Below are positions 13,830-20,389 of a DNA stretch of 64,000 bases, piece by piece. Made by a program: the position numbers and the translations under genes. The first letter of the stretch is position 1, and each line of letters begins with the position of its first letter. Source of the DNA: an uncultured Actinomycetes bacterium (GTDB lineage Bacteria > Actinomycetota > Actinomycetes > Streptosporangiales > Streptosporangiaceae); contig CAVRHH010000024.1 of the NCBI GenBank assembly GCA_963720945.1, positions 1 to 64,000 on the forward strand. The letters are read 5' to 3'. Under the pieces are notes generated by a model. That model had not been told where the DNA came from and did no database searches. It worked only from the letters and a program-made list of their open reading frames with translations.

Positions 13830-14018
13830 TCAGGGGATGGGGACGCCCCCGGCGGGGAAGGTGAGCTCGCCGCCCAGGTAGCGGAAGACCGGGTCGCCGG
13901 GCCGGGCCGTCAGCGGGGCGATGTCCAGCAGGCGGAGGGTCCGGCCGGGGCGGGCCAGCCGGGGCCGGAGCATCGTCCCGATCCGGCCGGCCGCGCCGGT
14001 CATCAGGATGGCCGGCAC
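13830..14018 (-). pseudogene. 62-aa N-terminal fragment of an NAD(P)-binding (Rossmann, SDR/epimerase-like) protein
   Basis: MTGAAGRIGTMLRPRL... glycine-rich NAD-binding motif, then stop. No continuation in other frames. Confidence 0.25.
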
Positions 14019-14078: not shown

Positions 14079-15164
14079 TCAGAAGACAACGACGCTGCGC
14101 AGTACCTCACCGCGTTCCATCTTGCCGAACGCCTTCTCCACGTCGTCCAGCGCGATCGTCTCCGACACGAACTTCTCCAGCGGCAGGCGGCCGCCCAGGT
14201 GCAGGTCGACGAGCATCGGGAAGTCGCGGGTGGGCAGGCAGTCGCCGTACCAGGACGATTTGACGGCGCCGCCGCGGCCGAAGACGTCCAGCAGCGGCAG
14301 TTCCAGCCGCATCTCCGGGGTCGGCACACCGACGAGCACGACGGTCCCGGCCAGGTCGCGCGCGTAGAAAGCCTGCTGGTAGGTTTCCGGGCGGCCGACC
14401 GCATCGATGACCACGTCCGCGCCGAAGCCGCCGGTGAGCTCGCGGATGCGCCCGACCGGGTCACCGGCCCGCGCGTTGACCACGTCGGTCGCGCCGAACT
14501 GGCGCGCCCAGTCCAGCTTGCGGTCGTCCACGTCCACGGCGATGATGCGCGCCGCTCCCGCCAGGCTGGCGCCGAGGACGGCGGCGTCTCCCACGCCCCC
14601 GCAGCCGATCACGGCGACCGAATCACCCCGGCTGACCTGCCCGGTGTTCAGTGCGGCCCCCAGCCCGGCCATCACCCCGCAGCCCAGCAGGCCCGCCACC
14701 TCGGGGCGGACGGCCGGGTTGACCTCCGTGCACTGCCCGGCGGCGACCAGCGTCTTCTCGGCGAACGCGCCGATGCCGAGCGCGGGCGACAGCGGGGTGC
14801 CGTCGGCCAGCGTCATCTTCTGGCTCGCGTTGTGCGTATTGAAGCAGTACCAGGGCCGCCCGCGGCGGCAGGCGCGGCACTGCCCGCAGACCGCGCGCCA
14901 GTTAAGGATGACGAAGTCGCCGGGGGCCACGTCGGTGACGCCGTCGCCGACGGCTTCGACCACTCCGGCCGCCTCATGCCCGAGAAAGTAGGGGAAGTCG
15001 TCGCCGATCCCGCCCTGCTTGTAGTGCAGGTCGGTGTGGCAGACGCCGCACGCCTGGACGTGCACCAGGGCCTCTCCCGGTCCCGGATCCGGTACCAGAA
15101 TCGTCGTGACCTCGACTGGAGCACCCTTTTCGCGCGCGATCACGCCCTGCACGCTGTCCGCCAT
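14079..15164 (-). CDS. Zn-dependent class III alcohol dehydrogenase, homologue of S-(hydroxymethyl)mycothiol (formaldehyde) dehydrogenase
   Basis: [22 protein letters not shown] and [10 protein letters not shown] motifs. ATG at 15162-15164 (MADSVQGV). Confidence 0.85.
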
Positions 15165-15284
15165 CGGCTCACCCTCCCACCCGGGCCCGGCCGCCCGGCC
15201 GGATCTGGCCGCGGCGCCTCTCACCCTCATTACTTATCAGAGAAGGAACGGGCCGCCGGTGCCCGGCACAGCCAACGGCGCGTG

Positions 15285-17141
15285 CTACGGCTTGCCCGTC
15301 AGGAGGCCGCCGGCGCCCTGGCTGACGTTGCCGACCACGGTGCCCACGCTGCCGGTGACGCCGCTGACCGTGCTCCCGGCGTTCTTGACGGTGCCGCCGA
15401 CGGCGCCGCCGGCCTGCGTGACCGTGCTGCCCACGCCGGTGCTGCCCAGTCCGGCGCTGTTCACGCCCGCGCCCAGCTGCTGGGCTACGCCGGCCACCGC
15501 GTTGCCGAGGGTATTGGTGGTCGGGCCCAGCACGGTGCCGAGAACCTGGGTGGCGCCCGAGACGACCTGCCCGGTCCCGCTGACCGTGCCGCCGAGGGTG
15601 CCGCCCACGCCCTTGGTGACCGTCCCGATCGCCCCGATCGCCCCGCCGAGCCCGCTCAGCGCGGCAGACCCGGTGCCTGGGCTCGCGGTGGTCCCGCCGG
15701 TCGCGCCGGGACGGCCCGCGGTGCCCGCACCGGTCCCGGCGGGCGCGGCGCCGGCCGGCGTTCCCGCGGCGGGACTGCCGGACCCGGCGCCCGCCGCGCA
15801 GATCCGGGCGGCGACACCAGCGCAGCCGGTTCCCGTGGCCCCGCCGCCCGGGGTCACCGACGAGGCCGAGCCGAGCGGGCTGGCGGCGGCCGGGACGCGG
15901 CTGGATGCGGATGGGCCCGCCGGAGACACCGCGGCGGCCGGCACGGCCCGCCGGGAACCGGCGCCCAGGGGCCCGTACGGGCTGACGCTGACCGCGAAAA
16001 CCACGCCGCCGGCCACGGCCAGCCCGGCGGCGGCACTCGCGGCCGCGGCCACCGGGTGCAGCCGCACGTGCCCGCTCAGCCAGGCCCGGCCGCCCCGCCG
16101 GGCCGCGGCGCCAGCCTTGAGCCCCGCTCCCGCCGTCAGCCCCGCTCCGGCTTTCGCGCCCACGCCGGCCTTGAGGCCGGCGGCCGCCTTGGCCCCGGCC
16201 CCGGCCTTCACCGCGGCCGGGAGGACTCCATGGCCCGCGGAAGCCAGGGCGCCCGCACCGGCCAGCGCGGCGGGGGTGAGGATCGCCCCGAGCCGGCTGT
16301 TGACTTCGGTCAGCTCCGTGGCCAGGGCATAACAGCTGGGGCAGTGCTCGAGATGCTCATGGACGGCGCTACGGCGGCGCCGGCTGAGCCGACCGCGGGC
16401 GTCGGCGCCGAGCGCCTCCGCGTACGAACGGCAGGACGCGGAGATATTGCCGCCGATGTGCTCCTGCAGGTAGGCCTGCCGGAGCCCTTCGCGGGCCCGG
16501 ACGGCCAGGGCCGAGACGCCGTTGGCGGACAGCCCGAACATCGGCGCGACGGCAGCGGGCGCCTTCCCCTCGACCTCCAGCTGCCAGAGGACGGCGCGCC
16601 AGCGGGCCGGCAGGTGCGCAAAGGCCTGGGCGACCAGGCGGGCCTCGGCCCGGGCCTCGGTTTCCGCTTCCGGGCCGCGCGACAGCCGGGCGACGCCCAT
16701 GTTCTCTTCCGGCACGCGGTCTTCGAGGTCCTCGCCGAGATCGCCGACGACGGTGGTGCGGCGGCTGGCCCGCAGCCAGTCGTTGGCCGTGTTGCGCACC
16801 GCCGTCAGCAGGTAGGCCCGGAAGGCGAGGCCCGGCCCGCCGCCGGCCCGGATCGCGCCGAGCACCCGGGTGAAGGCCTCGGCGACGATATCGTCGGCGA
16901 CGTCACGCGGCACCATCGACAGGGCGACCCGGCGGGCGGCCGGCGCGTGCTCGACGTACAGCTCCTCATAGGTCTGGCCGGCGACGTCACCGATCGGCAG
17001 GATCGCCAGATCGTCAGGCCTGCGGTGCCGCGGCCGGCGACCGCTATCGGGGATCTGTCCGCCTGCTGTCCCGCTGAGCACAATGGCCTCCGGGCTGTGT
17101 CGGGTGCGGGACCGATAATGCCAACAATAAGGCCTCAACAC
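15285..17141 (-). CDS. ECF sigma factor fused in frame to a zf-HC2 anti-sigma-like domain, TM helix and Gly/Thr/Ala-rich repetitive C-terminal region
   Basis: Sigma region 2 (DDIVAEAFTRVLGAIRAG) and region 4 (VAPMFGLSANGVSALAVRAREGLRQ). HEHLEHCPSCY zinc-finger. KAGAGAK repeats. TM segment. A likely true start is GTG at 17078-17080 (minus strand), preceded by GGAGG. Confidence 0.7.
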   Translation of the reverse strand: MLRPYCWHYRSRTRHSPEAIVLSGTAGGQIPDSGRRPRHRRPDDLAILPIGDVAGQTYEELYVEHAPAARRVALSMVPRDVADDIVAEAFTRVLGAIRAGGGPGLAFRAYLLTAVRNTANDWLRASRRTTVVGDLGEDLEDRVPEENMGVARLSRGPEAETEARAEARLVAQAFAHLPARWRAVLWQLEVEGKAPAAVAPMFGLSANGVSALAVRAREGLRQAYLQEHIGGNISASCRSYAEALGADARGRLSRRRRSAVHEHLEHCPSCYALATELTEVNSRLGAILTPAALAGAGALASAGHGVLPAAVKAGAGAKAAAGLKAGVGAKAGAGLTAGAGLKAGAAARRGGRAWLSGHVRLHPVAAAASAAAGLAVAGGVVFAVSVSPYGPLGAGSRRAVPAAAVSPAGPSASSRVPAAASPLGSASSVTPGGGATGTGCAGVAARICAAGAGSGSPAAGTPAGAAPAGTGAGTAGRPGATGGTTASPGTGSAALSGLGGAIGAIGTVTKGVGGTLGGTVSGTGQVVSGATQVLGTVLGPTTNTLGNAVAGVAQQLGAGVNSAGLGSTGVGSTVTQAGGAVGGTVKNAGSTVSGVTGSVGTVVGNVSQGAGGLLTGKP

Positions 17142-17310
17142 CAGTTGATAGCCGGAGAATCACCGTCTATATGAGCTGGCCGACTGGGATATTCCGGCGA
17201 TTCGCACCGGAACGGAACAACCGGGTGGATAGGTAACCGTGCCGGCGGGCCGGCGAATTTCCGCCTTGTCCCGGTGCTTTTCGGACATGGCCCGCATTGT
17301 CCTTTATCTG

Positions 17311-18564
17311 CTATCCGCGCGCCTTTTCCTCAACGCTGCGTTCCCGCTCGCCGGGCCGGCCCGCCCGGCCTTTCCAGGCGCCGCCCCGGCCCGCGTAGTG
17401 CCGCCGGCCCGAGTCGGCGGTCATGGCCGCGTACATGAGCGCGATAGCGGGAAGCGTGGGGGCCCGCATCGGCGACAGCCGGTACAGCCGCAGCATCGGC
17501 AGGTAGCTGACCGCCATCGCCGCCCAGCCGGCCGCGCCGGCCGCCGCGCAGAGCGGCGGCCCGGCGCCGATCCGGCCCGCGCCCCCGGCCAGCGCGATCA
17601 GGCCCGCTATCGCACTGACCGGGGGCAGCACGTAGAGCCAGGCCAGGCCGGCGAGCGTGCCGGCCAGCAGCCACGGCGAGTACCGGAGCTGGGTGTAGGC
17701 CGACCGCGCCACCATGTCCCACAGGTCCGCGAGCCCGTGATACGGGCGGACGCTCCGGACGCTGGTGGTGAGCCCCAGCCAGCACCGCCCCCGGGACGGT
17801 GGCCGCTTCAGCAGGCGGCCGAGGGCGACGTCATCGATGAGCGCACCGCGGATGGGAGCCAGGCCGCCGGCCGCATCGAGCGCGCGGCGGCGGACGAGCA
17901 TGCATCCGCCCGCCGCTGCGGCGGTACGGCCGCCCGGGCGGTTGACCCAGCGGAACGGGTACAGCTGGGCGAAGAAGTAGACGAACGCCGGGATGATCGC
18001 CTTCTCCCAGCCGGTCTCCGTGCGCAGCAGGACCATCTGCGATACCAGGTCACGGTCGCTGGCCTCGGCCGCGGCTACCAGCGCGCGCAGCGCACCGGGC
18101 TGCTGCCAGGCGATGTCGGCGTCGGTGAACAGGATGTAGGGCGCGCCGGCGCCGGCCGCCGCCAGTCCCTGCGCCATCGCCCAGGGTTTGCCGGCCCAGC
18201 CGGGCGGCGGAGCCGCGCCGGGCACGACGCGCAGCGCACGGGGCGCCCCGGCGGCGAGGGCGGCGGCGACCTCACCGGTGCCGTCGGAGCTGCTGTCGTC
18301 GACGAGCGTGACCGAGAACGGGCCGGGATAGTCCTGGGCCAGCAAAGCCGGCAGTGTGACCGGCAGGACGGCCGCCTCGTCCCGGGCCGGCACGACGGCG
18401 GCGACCTCCGGCCATACGAGGGTACCGGCGGCACCGGCAGACCCGGCATCTCCCGCGGCCGGGCCGGGCAGCCGCTGATCCGTCCGCCAGAACCCGCCGT
18501 GCCCCGTCAGCAGCACGGCCCAGGCCACGGCGGCCAGCGCCGCGGCGATACCCAGAGCACCCAC
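17311..18564 (-). CDS. Family 2 glycosyltransferase with C-terminal transmembrane domain (polyprenyl-phosphate sugar synthase-like)
   Basis: GT2 signature VTLVDDSSSDGTGE...FTDADI, followed by about four TM helices. Confidence 0.75.
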   Translation of the reverse strand: MGALGIAAALAAVAWAVLLTGHGGFWRTDQRLPGPAAGDAGSAGAAGTLVWPEVAAVVPARDEAAVLPVTLPALLAQDYPGPFSVTLVDDSSSDGTGEVAAALAAGAPRALRVVPGAAPPPGWAGKPWAMAQGLAAAGAGAPYILFTDADIAWQQPGALRALVAAAEASDRDLVSQMVLLRTETGWEKAIIPAFVYFFAQLYPFRWVNRPGGRTAAAAGGCMLVRRRALDAAGGLAPIRGALIDDVALGRLLKRPPSRGRCWLGLTTSVRSVRPYHGLADLWDMVARSAYTQLRYSPWLLAGTLAGLAWLYVLPPVSAIAGLIALAGGAGRIGAGPPLCAAAGAAGWAAMAVSYLPMLRLYRLSPMRAPTLPAIALMYAAMTADSGRRHYAGRGGAWKGRAGRPGERERSVEEKARG

Positions 18565-18613: not shown

Positions 18614-20389
18614 CTACGTGCGCCAGGCCAGGATCTTGCCGACGTGGTAGCTGGGATGGCCGAGCAGGCCGATGAGATACTCCCCGAGACCCGAGCGGGT
18701 ACCGGTGACCGCGACGATGGCGGCCGGCCGCCAGCGTGCGAGCTGGGCGTTCATCTGCGCGCGCGGGGGCATCTGGAGGAAGGCCCCGCCCGACCACAAG
18801 ACGTTGAGGTATAGCGCGCCCGGGGCCATGATCCCGCCGTCGATGTACGCCTGGCCACCCGGGCCGGGGCCGGTGAAGTACCCGCCGATAAGGTCGATGG
18901 GCAGCGCGGTGTCGGCCTGCCAGCGCATCGGCTCGGTGAACGTCGCCGTGGGGATCGGCACGACCAGGACCCGCGCCCCGGCAGGCAGATGCAGCGCGGC
19001 GAACGTCGCGGACCACCCGGCCGGGACGGGCGCGGCCGCGGCGTCGGGCAGCGGCCGCGGCAGGATCGGCAGCACGGCGAGGATCGCGGCCGCGGTGACG
19101 GCGCCCGGCCCCCAGCGCCGCGCGGCGATCCGCGGCAGGCGGCGGGTCAGGTCCAGGCCGAAGGCCAGCAGGGCCGCCGCGGCGCCGTCCGCGGGGATCG
19201 AGAACCGGGTCGGCAGCGCCGCGTCGAGCAGCGGCAGCGAGCCCAGCCAGTGCCAGGGCAGCAGGATCGCATGGTGATCGGTGCCGCCGATCATGAGAGT
19301 GCCGCCCAGGGAGAAGATCTCCATGACCGCGAACGTCACGGCGGCCGCCCGGACCGCGAGGTTCCGCCAGAAGCGCACCGCCACGGCGGCCAGCACGATG
19401 AGCAGCGGCCAGCCCAGGTAGGCCAGATACTCCGGCACGCCGCCCTGATACCGGGCGGCCGCCGCCGCGCTGGACGCCGTGTGGAGGAACAGGAACGACG
19501 ACGGGGTCACGAACCCGCTCAGGTCGTTCTTGAAGAAGTCGGGCGTGAACGCGCTGCCGTGCTGGTGCAACGGCCCGAAGAACTGGACCCACAGCGGATA
19601 ACCGCACACGGCGAACAGCAGGGCCACCGCGACGGCGAGACCGGCCGCCAGGCGCGGGACCTGCTGCAGCGCGGCCCGCGGCCGGCTGACGGCGAGCACG
19701 ATCGCGATGAGGGCACCCGCCAGGACCGTGTCCAGCAGCACTTCCTCGGCGGTGAGCAACTGCGCCGCAGCCAGCAGGCCCAGCCACAGCCCGCCGCGCA
19801 GCGGCCGGGCGCGCCCGGTGCCGATCCGCAGCGCCGCGTCGAGGATGAGCGGCGGCAGGACCGCGAACTGGAAGTCGTAGTGGCCGACGGCGGACTGGAG
19901 CAGCGCCGGGGAGAACCCGTAGACCGCGCCCGCGATGGCCGCGCCGGTGACGCTGACACCCCAGCGCCGCAGGACGGCGAACAGCGCCAGCGCGCTGCCC
20001 GCGAACCCCACGGTCATCAGCACGGTCAGGCTCACCTGCGGTCCCGCCAGCAGGGTGAGCGGCGCCAGCAGGACGCCGGGCAGCAGCAGGAACGTGTTCC
20101 ACATGACGTTGATGCCCTGCGGGGCGTTCAGCGCCGTGGTCACCAGGGCCGGCAGCCTGAAGTGGGCGACGGCCGTCGCGTCGTAGCGGAAGAACCAGGC
20201 GAACTGGTCCGCGTCGTTGGCATTGCCCGCGACCGTGCCGGCCGCCGGGTGCCGCCACAGCCACAGCAGCAAGCCCGCCGCGGCCAGCAGGTAATAGACA
20301 GCGGCCAGCGTGAGGACACGCGCCTCGCGCCGGGACGGCGGGTCGTCCTGGGCGTCAGCGGAGGATCTCGTAACGGGCAGGGCAGCCAC
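18614..20389 (-). CDS. Large polytopic membrane protein, putative GT-C-type glycosyltransferase (YfhO/arabinosyl/mannosyltransferase-like)
   Basis: 591 aa with at least 12 TM helices. Genomic pairing with a membrane-anchored GT2. No confident family assignment. Confidence 0.5.
   Translation of the reverse strand: MAALPVTRSSADAQDDPPSRREARVLTLAAVYYLLAAAGLLLWLWRHPAAGTVAGNANDADQFAWFFRYDATAVAHFRLPALVTTALNAPQGINVMWNTFLLLPGVLLAPLTLLAGPQVSLTVLMTVGFAGSALALFAVLRRWGVSVTGAAIAGAVYGFSPALLQSAVGHYDFQFAVLPPLILDAALRIGTGRARPLRGGLWLGLLAAAQLLTAEEVLLDTVLAGALIAIVLAVSRPRAALQQVPRLAAGLAVAVALLFAVCGYPLWVQFFGPLHQHGSAFTPDFFKNDLSGFVTPSSFLFLHTASSAAAAARYQGGVPEYLAYLGWPLLIVLAAVAVRFWRNLAVRAAAVTFAVMEIFSLGGTLMIGGTDHHAILLPWHWLGSLPLLDAALPTRFSIPADGAAAALLAFGLDLTRRLPRIAARRWGPGAVTAAAILAVLPILPRPLPDAAAAPVPAGWSATFAALHLPAGARVLVVPIPTATFTEPMRWQADTALPIDLIGGYFTGPGPGGQAYIDGGIMAPGALYLNVLWSGGAFLQMPPRAQMNAQLARWRPAAIVAVTGTRSGLGEYLIGLLGHPSYHVGKILAWRT

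Follow-up and report, generated by a model that had tools for sequence, protein, structure and literature searches.

An ECF sigma factor and a zinc anti-sigma module in one polypeptide

We analysed a window of 64,000 nucleotides (positions 1 to 64,000 of contig CAVRHH010000024.1, assembly GCA_963720945.1, from an uncultured bacterium of the Streptosporangiaceae). A gene on its minus strand joins an extracytoplasmic function (ECF) sigma factor, a zinc anti-sigma (ZAS) module, a predicted transmembrane (TM) helix and a long tail in one polypeptide of 598 aa. Weighing its parts against known systems, we consider it reasonably likely that the product is a signalling protein of the ECF48/52/53 kind, sigma factor and anti-sigma factor in one, which is released by proteolysis. 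Fused sigma/ZAS proteins are already known and are abundant in actinobacteria, and the gene described here is an ordinary new member. Its parts are listed below, with residues numbered along the 598-aa protein that starts at GTG 17081. Structure predictions are from AlphaFold2 (AF2), with the predicted local distance difference test score (pLDDT) in brackets.

15285..17081, minus strand: whole fusion gene, 598 codons plus stop (15285-15287), with sigma factor, ZAS module, linker, TM helix and tail in one polypeptide
17087..17091, minus strand: Shine-Dalgarno sequence GGAGG, 5 nt before GTG 17081, invariant in 12 orthologous upstream regions
16977..17081, minus strand: N-terminal extension, residues 1-35, basic, predicted disordered (AF2 pLDDT 25-37), conserved only among close orthologues
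16755..16961, minus strand: sigma region 2, residues 41-109, Pfam PF04542 (Sigma70_r2) at E 2.4e-10 (AF2 pLDDT 86-92)
16458..16673, minus strand: sigma region 4, residues ~137-208, placed by the reach of TIGR02937 and by AF2 helices at 137-209 (pLDDT 84-91)
16302..16457, minus strand: ZAS module, residues 209-260, Pfam zf-HC2 at E 3.9e-06, 27.3 bits against a cut-off of 22.2
16431-16433, 16353-16355, 16341-16343 and 16332-16334, minus strand: codons of the predicted zinc ligands C217, H243, C247 and C250, respectively
16209..16301, minus strand: post-ZAS helix and uncharged segment, residues 261-291, starting with NSRLGAILTPAALAGA; L264 and P270 invariant, AF2 helix running to 279
16101..16208, minus strand: six KAGAGx hexapeptides, residues 292-327, read from the sequence as a cytoplasmic juxtamembrane linker
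16053..16100, minus strand: basic juxtamembrane stretch RRGGRAWLSGHVRLHP, residues 328-343; H342 and P343 invariant, R340 nearly so
15984..16052, minus strand: predicted single TM helix VAAAASAAAGLAVAGGVVFAVSV, residues 344-366, with the highest hydropathy of the protein; A352 and G358 invariant, G359 nearly so
15624..15983, minus strand: S/P/A/G-rich spacer, residues 367-486, aperiodic, predicted disordered (AF2 pLDDT 39-48)
15288..15623, minus strand: about ten 11-residue G/T/V/A repeats, residues 487-598, ending in GAGGLLTGKP, predicted to form an amphipathic helical hairpin

The initial annotation had described a single open reading frame (ORF) encoding an ECF sigma factor, a zf-HC2 module, a TM helix and a long tail. 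Pfam and NCBIfam matches, hydropathy and an unbroken frame all bear this out. Residues 36-208 match an ECF sigma factor (Pfam Sigma70_r2 and NCBIfam TIGR02937), and the only sigma-70 regions that the family models point to are 2 and 4. TIGR02937, the ECF sigma model, scored 72.7 bits against a cut-off of 42.9 over residues 58-223 of the ORF, its end corresponding to residue 203 in the 598-aa numbering. The Pfam region-4 model did not reach E 0.01 in the window protein, whereas homologues do match Sigma70_r4_2. The Sigma70_r2 and zf-HC2 matches both exceed the Pfam gathering cut-offs. Likewise, the top Foldseek matches of the sigma part are ECF sigma factors, namely SigL, SigE, AlgU, SigH, SigW, SigK and CnrH.

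The ZAS module carries the complete motif C217-x25-H243-x3-C247-x2-C250, that is, H-x3-C-x2-C with an upstream fourth ligand, which may be Cys or His in such modules. Alignments of 49 and 66 homologues show each of the four ligands as invariant, and the upstream ligand precedes the histidine by 26 positions in 76 of 77 loci; the first cysteine is replaced by histidine in a few homologues. AF2 predicts three helices in this part (215-228, 234-246 and 248-279; pLDDT 66-80). A profile of the ZAS segment searched against the PDB returned ChrR (E 0.009), RslA (0.17) and RsiW (0.98) among eight matches, together with a few unrelated proteins. The earlier label of an RsrA/RseA-type module is not supported: the nearest solved relatives of the segment are the zinc anti-sigma factors ChrR, RslA and RsiW, and RseA has no zinc finger.

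Comparison with a 92%-identical orthologue shows how selection acts on these two parts. Differences at codon positions 1/2/3 number 2/1/20 in the sigma factor and 8/3/16 in the ZAS module, and within region 4 the substitutions are mostly at third positions. This third-position excess points to purifying selection on both the sigma factor and the ZAS module.

The reading frame and its start

The window has ~75% G+C and long ORFs on both strands, so that ORF length by itself is no proof of a gene. Along the fusion frame the G+C content of third codon positions (GC3) is 0.82-1.00 from codon ~40 to the stop. A plus-strand ORF of 991 aa (14199..17174), which spans the sigma gene and the neighbouring alcohol dehydrogenase (ADH) gene, was rejected as a shadow ORF; its G+C at codon positions 1/2/3 is 0.89/0.65/0.75 versus 0.77/0.66/0.91 in the fusion frame.

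The minus-strand ORF 15285..17141 encodes 618 aa when counted from its first GTG. The initial annotation had given this whole ORF as the gene; its frame was correct, its start was not. GTG 17081 is supported as the start by the GGAGG sequence 5 nt upstream, by the starts of homologues (MLSGTAGEQIP...) and by gene calls on two assemblies, and the GTG at 17141 is probably not used.

The fusion is genuine and widespread

No stop codon or frameshift separates region 4 from the zinc finger, as the initial annotation had read the sequence. GC3 runs on continuously across the frame, and the identical 598-aa protein was found in two separate assemblies, ERZ25039481 and ERZ25039484, which differ by frameshifts in other genes. 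For the loci we took the best 80 of 278 relatives from a scan of species-representative genomes. The sigma factor and a [C/H]-x25-H-x3-C-x2-C motif share one frame in 77 of these 80 loci, including two complete chromosomes and isolates of Nocardiopsis, Plantactinospora, Amycolatopsis, Glycomyces, Nocardioides, Arthrobacter, Leifsonia, Nonomuraea and Kutzneria.

Searches of protein collections gave a similar picture. The 120 best of 550 homologues are mostly 400-620 aa long, and many have both Pfam domains. A query covering the sigma and ZAS parts yielded 1,810 matches at E<=1e-30 among 1.84 billion representatives clustered at 50% identity. Among the best 150 of these, a few truncated entries apart, the match runs from sigma into ZAS as a single stretch (about query residues 31-290), in proteins mostly 300-1,600 aa long. 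The relatives lie nearly all on Actinomycetota contigs; two contigs of metagenome-assembled genomes are labelled Acidobacteriaceae and Melainabacteria.

Adjacent sigma and anti-sigma genes might have been merged on paper by a missed stop or an indel. Several near-identical but short entries (221-256 aa), whose ends lie in an alternative frame, would suit such an artefact, as would the three interrupted loci (L007, L017 and L019), all of them long-read metagenome bins. The breaks in the short entries fall at differing positions, however, as expected of long-read indel noise, and ProRS in those assemblies behaves likewise. To judge from these patterns, the clusters of such short sigma factors (P0037, P0040, P0048, P0061 and P0105) are indel artefacts of long-read assembly. 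At L017 and L019 the other frame is open after the break as far as the conserved C-terminus. An artefact is thus hardly conceivable, and a split gene is ruled out by the GC3 profile, the duplicate assembly, the fused loci and the pattern of breaks. Together these comparisons indicate that the fusion is genuine and not a product of sequencing.

L007 differs from the other two interrupted loci. At L007:6001-6970 an in-frame stop marks the very junction of region 4 and zinc module (AYLQ*HIG), and TM helix, tail and ADH gene are all lost. This locus is either a decayed copy or the sole candidate for a natural split. We also observed that the two assemblies holding the window sequence (L001 and L002) encode ProRS of 386 and 472 aa, respectively, and that a gene of 739 aa is broken into two pieces of 348 and 354 aa.

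Linker, membrane helix and topology

A stretch of 71 aa (residues 271-341) leads from the ZAS module to the TM helix. Its length is 30-77 aa across homologues and 30-32 aa in the more distant aligned ones. Even very close relatives differ, the 92%-identical orthologue (L006) having 54 extra residues. The Lys/Ala/Gly repeats noted earlier are present as the six KAGAGx hexapeptides; at L012 the linker unit is instead a pentapeptide, KAGAA. At the DNA level, Tandem Repeats Finder detected only short, weak arrays in the linker or tail, the linker giving one weak 6-bp array. Recent slippage therefore did not give rise to the peptide repeats of the window copy.

Residues 344-366 are the only segment past the TM threshold (Kyte-Doolittle 19-residue mean 1.98), so the single helix first proposed stands as a single hydropathy peak. 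Its sigma-side flank holds nine Lys/Arg and no acidic residue. Since the sigma factor is necessarily cytoplasmic, the positive-inside rule places the tail outside the cell, and we infer an N-in/C-out topology with an extracytoplasmic tail. A second TM helix at 264-291, which would leave the tail in the cytoplasm, was ruled out; residues 261-291 are read as cytoplasmic because their hydropathy reaches only 1.57 and a loop of charge +9 follows.

Site-2 protease substrates need helix-destabilising residues. The anchor of the window protein combines one hydropathy peak and the +9 flank with a conserved Gly-Gly within the helix and a His-Pro at its start. Such a single-pass anchor appears compatible with regulated intramembrane proteolysis of the kind that RseA, RsiW and IutY undergo, and we take it as nothing beyond that.

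A fast-evolving extracytoplasmic tail

The tail is 232 aa long, and 185-312 aa in homologues. Its last 221 residues consist of 26% G, 19% A, 13% T, 11% V, 10% S and 6% P, with no Asp or Glu. The initial annotation had described ~230 aa of low-complexity repeats. The length holds, and the repeats do not extend throughout: only the C-terminal ~110 aa are periodic, with a period of 11, and the first ~120 aa are aperiodic. In the repeat region AF2 predicts helices at 503-542 (pLDDT 74-89) and 553-590. The hydrophobic moment peaks at 97-101 degrees, that is, an 11/3 periodicity, with z 3.8-5.0, a value reached by none of 2,000 shuffles.

Periodicity at 11/22/33/44 residues is clear in homologues, and the 11-mers themselves are far clearer in relatives; L012, for example, has four copies of GVGSTVQGVTT and a variant fifth. 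Giant tails of 696-1,169 aa, built of GLTGTAGxTVS 11-mers, occur at L024, L025 and L026 (ORFs from 6001, 6001 and 5135, respectively). The L025 tail also has 22-residue STPDSSSKTSTASTGNNPGTAT repeats, mucin-like in look; its contig is the one labelled Acidobacteriaceae, probably a binning error. No Pfam family matched the tail at E<=1, carbohydrate-binding modules included, and a search for the tail repeats elsewhere returned a single match.

Relative to the 92%-identical orthologue, codon-position differences are 12/20/14 in the spacer and 11/10/13 in the repeats, with no third-position excess. These counts suggest that the tail sequence is nearly free of amino-acid constraint, though its length, composition and frame are maintained.

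How the sigma factor may be released

The initial annotation had proposed regulation by intramolecular sequestration or proteolytic release, and the literature already holds this model for proteins so built (PMC8999054 section 3.5.3; PMC5826349 discussion). We draw the mechanism from the list of parts and from precedent (ECF48/52/53, IutY and SCO4117). At rest, the zinc module would bind the sigma factor in cis and the TM helix would tether the protein, so that the sigma factor is kept off RNA polymerase. A signal in the envelope, acting on the tail, would lead to cleavage outside the membrane, after which a site-2 protease would cut within the Gly-Gly-containing helix. Cytoplasmic proteases would then clear away the zinc module together with the Ala-rich stub, and the freed sigma factor would probably activate its own promoter. 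For ECF48, ECF52 and ECF53, activation by proteolysis is expected, with IutY as precedent (PMC8999054). A truncated, sigma-only form of SCO4117, an ECF52 member of Streptomyces coelicolor, activates its own gene, and excision from the membrane was proposed (PMC5826349).

Several observations weigh against proteolytic release. The TM helix is called from hydropathy alone. The predicted template modelling score (pTM) of the AF2 model is 0.39, which makes its placement of the ZAS module relative to the sigma domains unreliable, and the module is indeed not confidently placed. The 10 kb flanking the gene on each side hold no evident protease gene. The weak constraint on the tail fits poorly with a specific ligand-binding sensor. 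Moreover, the four invariant zinc ligands include the position of the redox-active Cys pair of RsrA, and with the CHCC set fully conserved, the sequence fits a thiol switch just as well.

Such a thiol or zinc switch, similar to RsrA and RslA, is the main rival, though we regard it as rather unlikely. Oxidants or thiol-reactive compounds would expel the zinc and the module would let go of the sigma factor, which would work while still tethered by the K/A/G linker or after a secondary cleavage; proteolysis would not be obligatory. The invariance of all four ligands speaks for it, as does the position of the first ligand 26 residues before the histidine, a spacing equal to that of C11 and H37 in RsrA. 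The stretch between ZAS module and helix is long, charged, flexible and variable (30-77 aa), and weak constraint on the tail is what one would expect if sensing were cytoplasmic. CHCC and HHCC sets are also found in non-redox anti-sigma factors, however, and ChrR and RsiW are among the best matches. The replacement of the first cysteine by histidine in a few homologues likewise speaks against redox sensing, and a purely cytoplasmic switch would have no need of a conserved TM helix and His-Pro boundary or of a tail kept at 185-312 aa.

The C-terminal extension might instead be a positive or scaffolding element required for activity, as in the soluble extensions of ECF41 and ECF42, which would make the protein a membrane-localised sigma factor. 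AF2 shows no confident inhibitory docking, activity depends in some cases on portions of the C-terminal extension (PMC8999054), and the truncated SCO4117 restored development only partially (PMC5826349). Against this, the module has its homologues among the class I zinc anti-sigma domains, which are known to act as inhibitors, and the sigma-only fragment of SCO4117 does activate its own gene. We therefore hold a positive element to be improbable, and return to proteolytic release of a sequestered sigma factor as the preferred reading.

What the tail would do in such a protein is a further matter. Helices built of 11-mers that sense lipid packing exist in other proteins. The tail might physically sense the outer leaflet or envelope state, or be glycosylated by the upstream lipid-type GT2 and polytopic membrane protein; we give this pair of proposals little credence. 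As a sensor, the repeat hairpin could sit on a disordered Ser/Thr/Pro-rich stalk and would not be a ligand-binding domain. If the tail were glycosylated, its modification state would possibly control site-1 cleavage. On either proposal the locus would by itself make up a complete sensor for the status of lipids or glycans in the envelope.

Genomic context

The minus strand carries, in order, a carbonic anhydrase gene, a gene for a 591-aa polytopic membrane protein, a GT2 glycosyltransferase gene, the sigma fusion and a zinc ADH gene. Features beyond the fusion gene are as follows.

18614..20389, minus strand: polytopic membrane protein, 591 aa, called GT-C in the initial annotation; sub-threshold DUF2079 match only
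17311..18564, minus strand: GT2 glycosyltransferase of the HpnB family, TIGR03469 at 478 bits against a cut-off of 379, also matched by Pfam GT2 models
17191..17195, minus strand: candidate ECF-type -35 box GGAAT (GGAAY in orthologues), from an alignment of 12 upstream regions
15249..15265, minus strand: terminator-like GC hairpin, 20 nt past the stop, consensus match only

The fusion gene had been placed upstream of the glycosyltransferase pair. It lies downstream, the minus-strand order being 20389 to 18614, 18564 to 17311 and then 17081 to 15285. The GT-C label is tentative: the membrane protein matched only DUF2079 (E 0.003, 17 bits against a cut-off of 28), and searches of NCBIfam and the PDB gave no match and no relative, respectively. 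The closest clade (L006-L019) has the GT2 and fusion genes in this order at each of its 14 loci, and none of the 66 more distant loci does. Unrelated housekeeping neighbours (carbonic anhydrase, ADH and ProRS) are conserved alongside in L006-L019, and homologues at 58-72% identity occupy different gene contexts. An order restricted to this clade and shared with housekeeping genes indicates ordinary vertical synteny, and a functional link between the fusion and the GT2/membrane-protein pair is not supported. A link to hopanoids by way of the HpnB match was rejected; the area examined, 10 kb on either side, holds no cyclase family, squalene-hopene cyclase included.

A spacer of 229 bp (17082-17310, minus strand) parts the GT2 and fusion genes. 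It has a lower G+C content and is conserved, with the blocks GGAAY, GCTCAnAT, CAACTG and TAYTATTGGC shared by 12 orthologues. A -10 element next to GGAAY could not be defined from the 12-region alignment, and a scan of the spacer for sigma-70-type promoters found none.

The vicinity also holds a remnant gene. The 62-aa ORF at 13830-14018 (minus strand) is what an in-frame internal deletion has left of an NAD-dependent epimerase, 267 aa long when intact. Compared with the complete gene at L003, residues 1-46 of the ORF match residues 1-46, and 33-63 (stop included) match 237-267. At L003, nucleotidyltransferase and MerR/GyrI-like genes stand between ADH and ProRS; the window lacks them.

Comparison with known systems

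The fusion had been presented as an unusual arrangement. The same architecture already defines the actinobacterial groups ECF48, ECF52 and ECF53, in which the sigma factor is fused C-terminally to a probable ZAS and one or two TM helices (PMC8999054 section 3.5.3), and SCO4117 has been studied experimentally. Like ECF52, the window protein unites ECF sigma factor, zf-HC2 zinc finger, TM helix and a long extracytoplasmic extension in one polypeptide, within Actinobacteria only. Relatives 48-50% identical over the sigma and ZAS parts carry NPCBM_assoc, DUF11, CARDB or DUF3344 in their tails, which points to the same broad group as ECF52. In contrast, the ECF52 extension is proline-rich and has a carbohydrate-binding module, whereas the window tail has only 6% Pro and no Pfam domain. 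It shows instead a disordered spacer and amphipathic 11-mers, and the cytoplasmic linker is expanded by KAGAGx repeats. With these two extension features of ECF52 missing, we file the protein as a known kind of fused sigma/ZAS with a variant tail. Compared by description, ECF48 and ECF53 are similar as well, having a C-terminal zinc-finger fusion (a likely ZAS), one or two TM helices and extensions of up to 400 residues. On its sequence features the protein belongs among the fused sigma/ZAS proteins, and we compare it with ECF52, ECF53 and ECF48 by description without assigning it to one of them.

IutY of Pseudomonas putida (ECF243) likewise holds sigma factor, TM helix and periplasmic parts in one protein, and is activated by regulated intramembrane proteolysis, by Prc and then RseP; its truncated form is constitutively active (PMC8999054). 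It is of the FecI/FecR type and not a zinc anti-sigma protein, is proteobacterial, and serves siderophore signalling via an outer-membrane receptor. IutY is nonetheless the best experimental precedent for the mechanism proposed here.

The pairs SigR-RsrA, SigL-RslA, SigE-ChrR and SigW-RsiW share H-x3-C-x2-C and an upstream Cys/His ligand with the window protein, whose sigma part resembles SigL, SigE and SigW. Sigma factor and anti-sigma factor are separate polypeptides in these two-gene pairs, whereas they are covalently joined here, so that the sigma factor has to be freed by cleavage or by a conformational switch in cis.

The main use of this comparison is that it keeps a well-populated and already classified architecture from being taken for something new. 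SCO4117 is the sole family member touched experimentally, and a clade whose tail is short, free of domains and made of repeats only is perhaps a simpler model for the role of the extracytoplasmic part. That tail is also the modest new point: without the proline-rich and carbohydrate-binding parts of ECF52, it ends in ~110 aa of fast-evolving amphipathic 11-mers.

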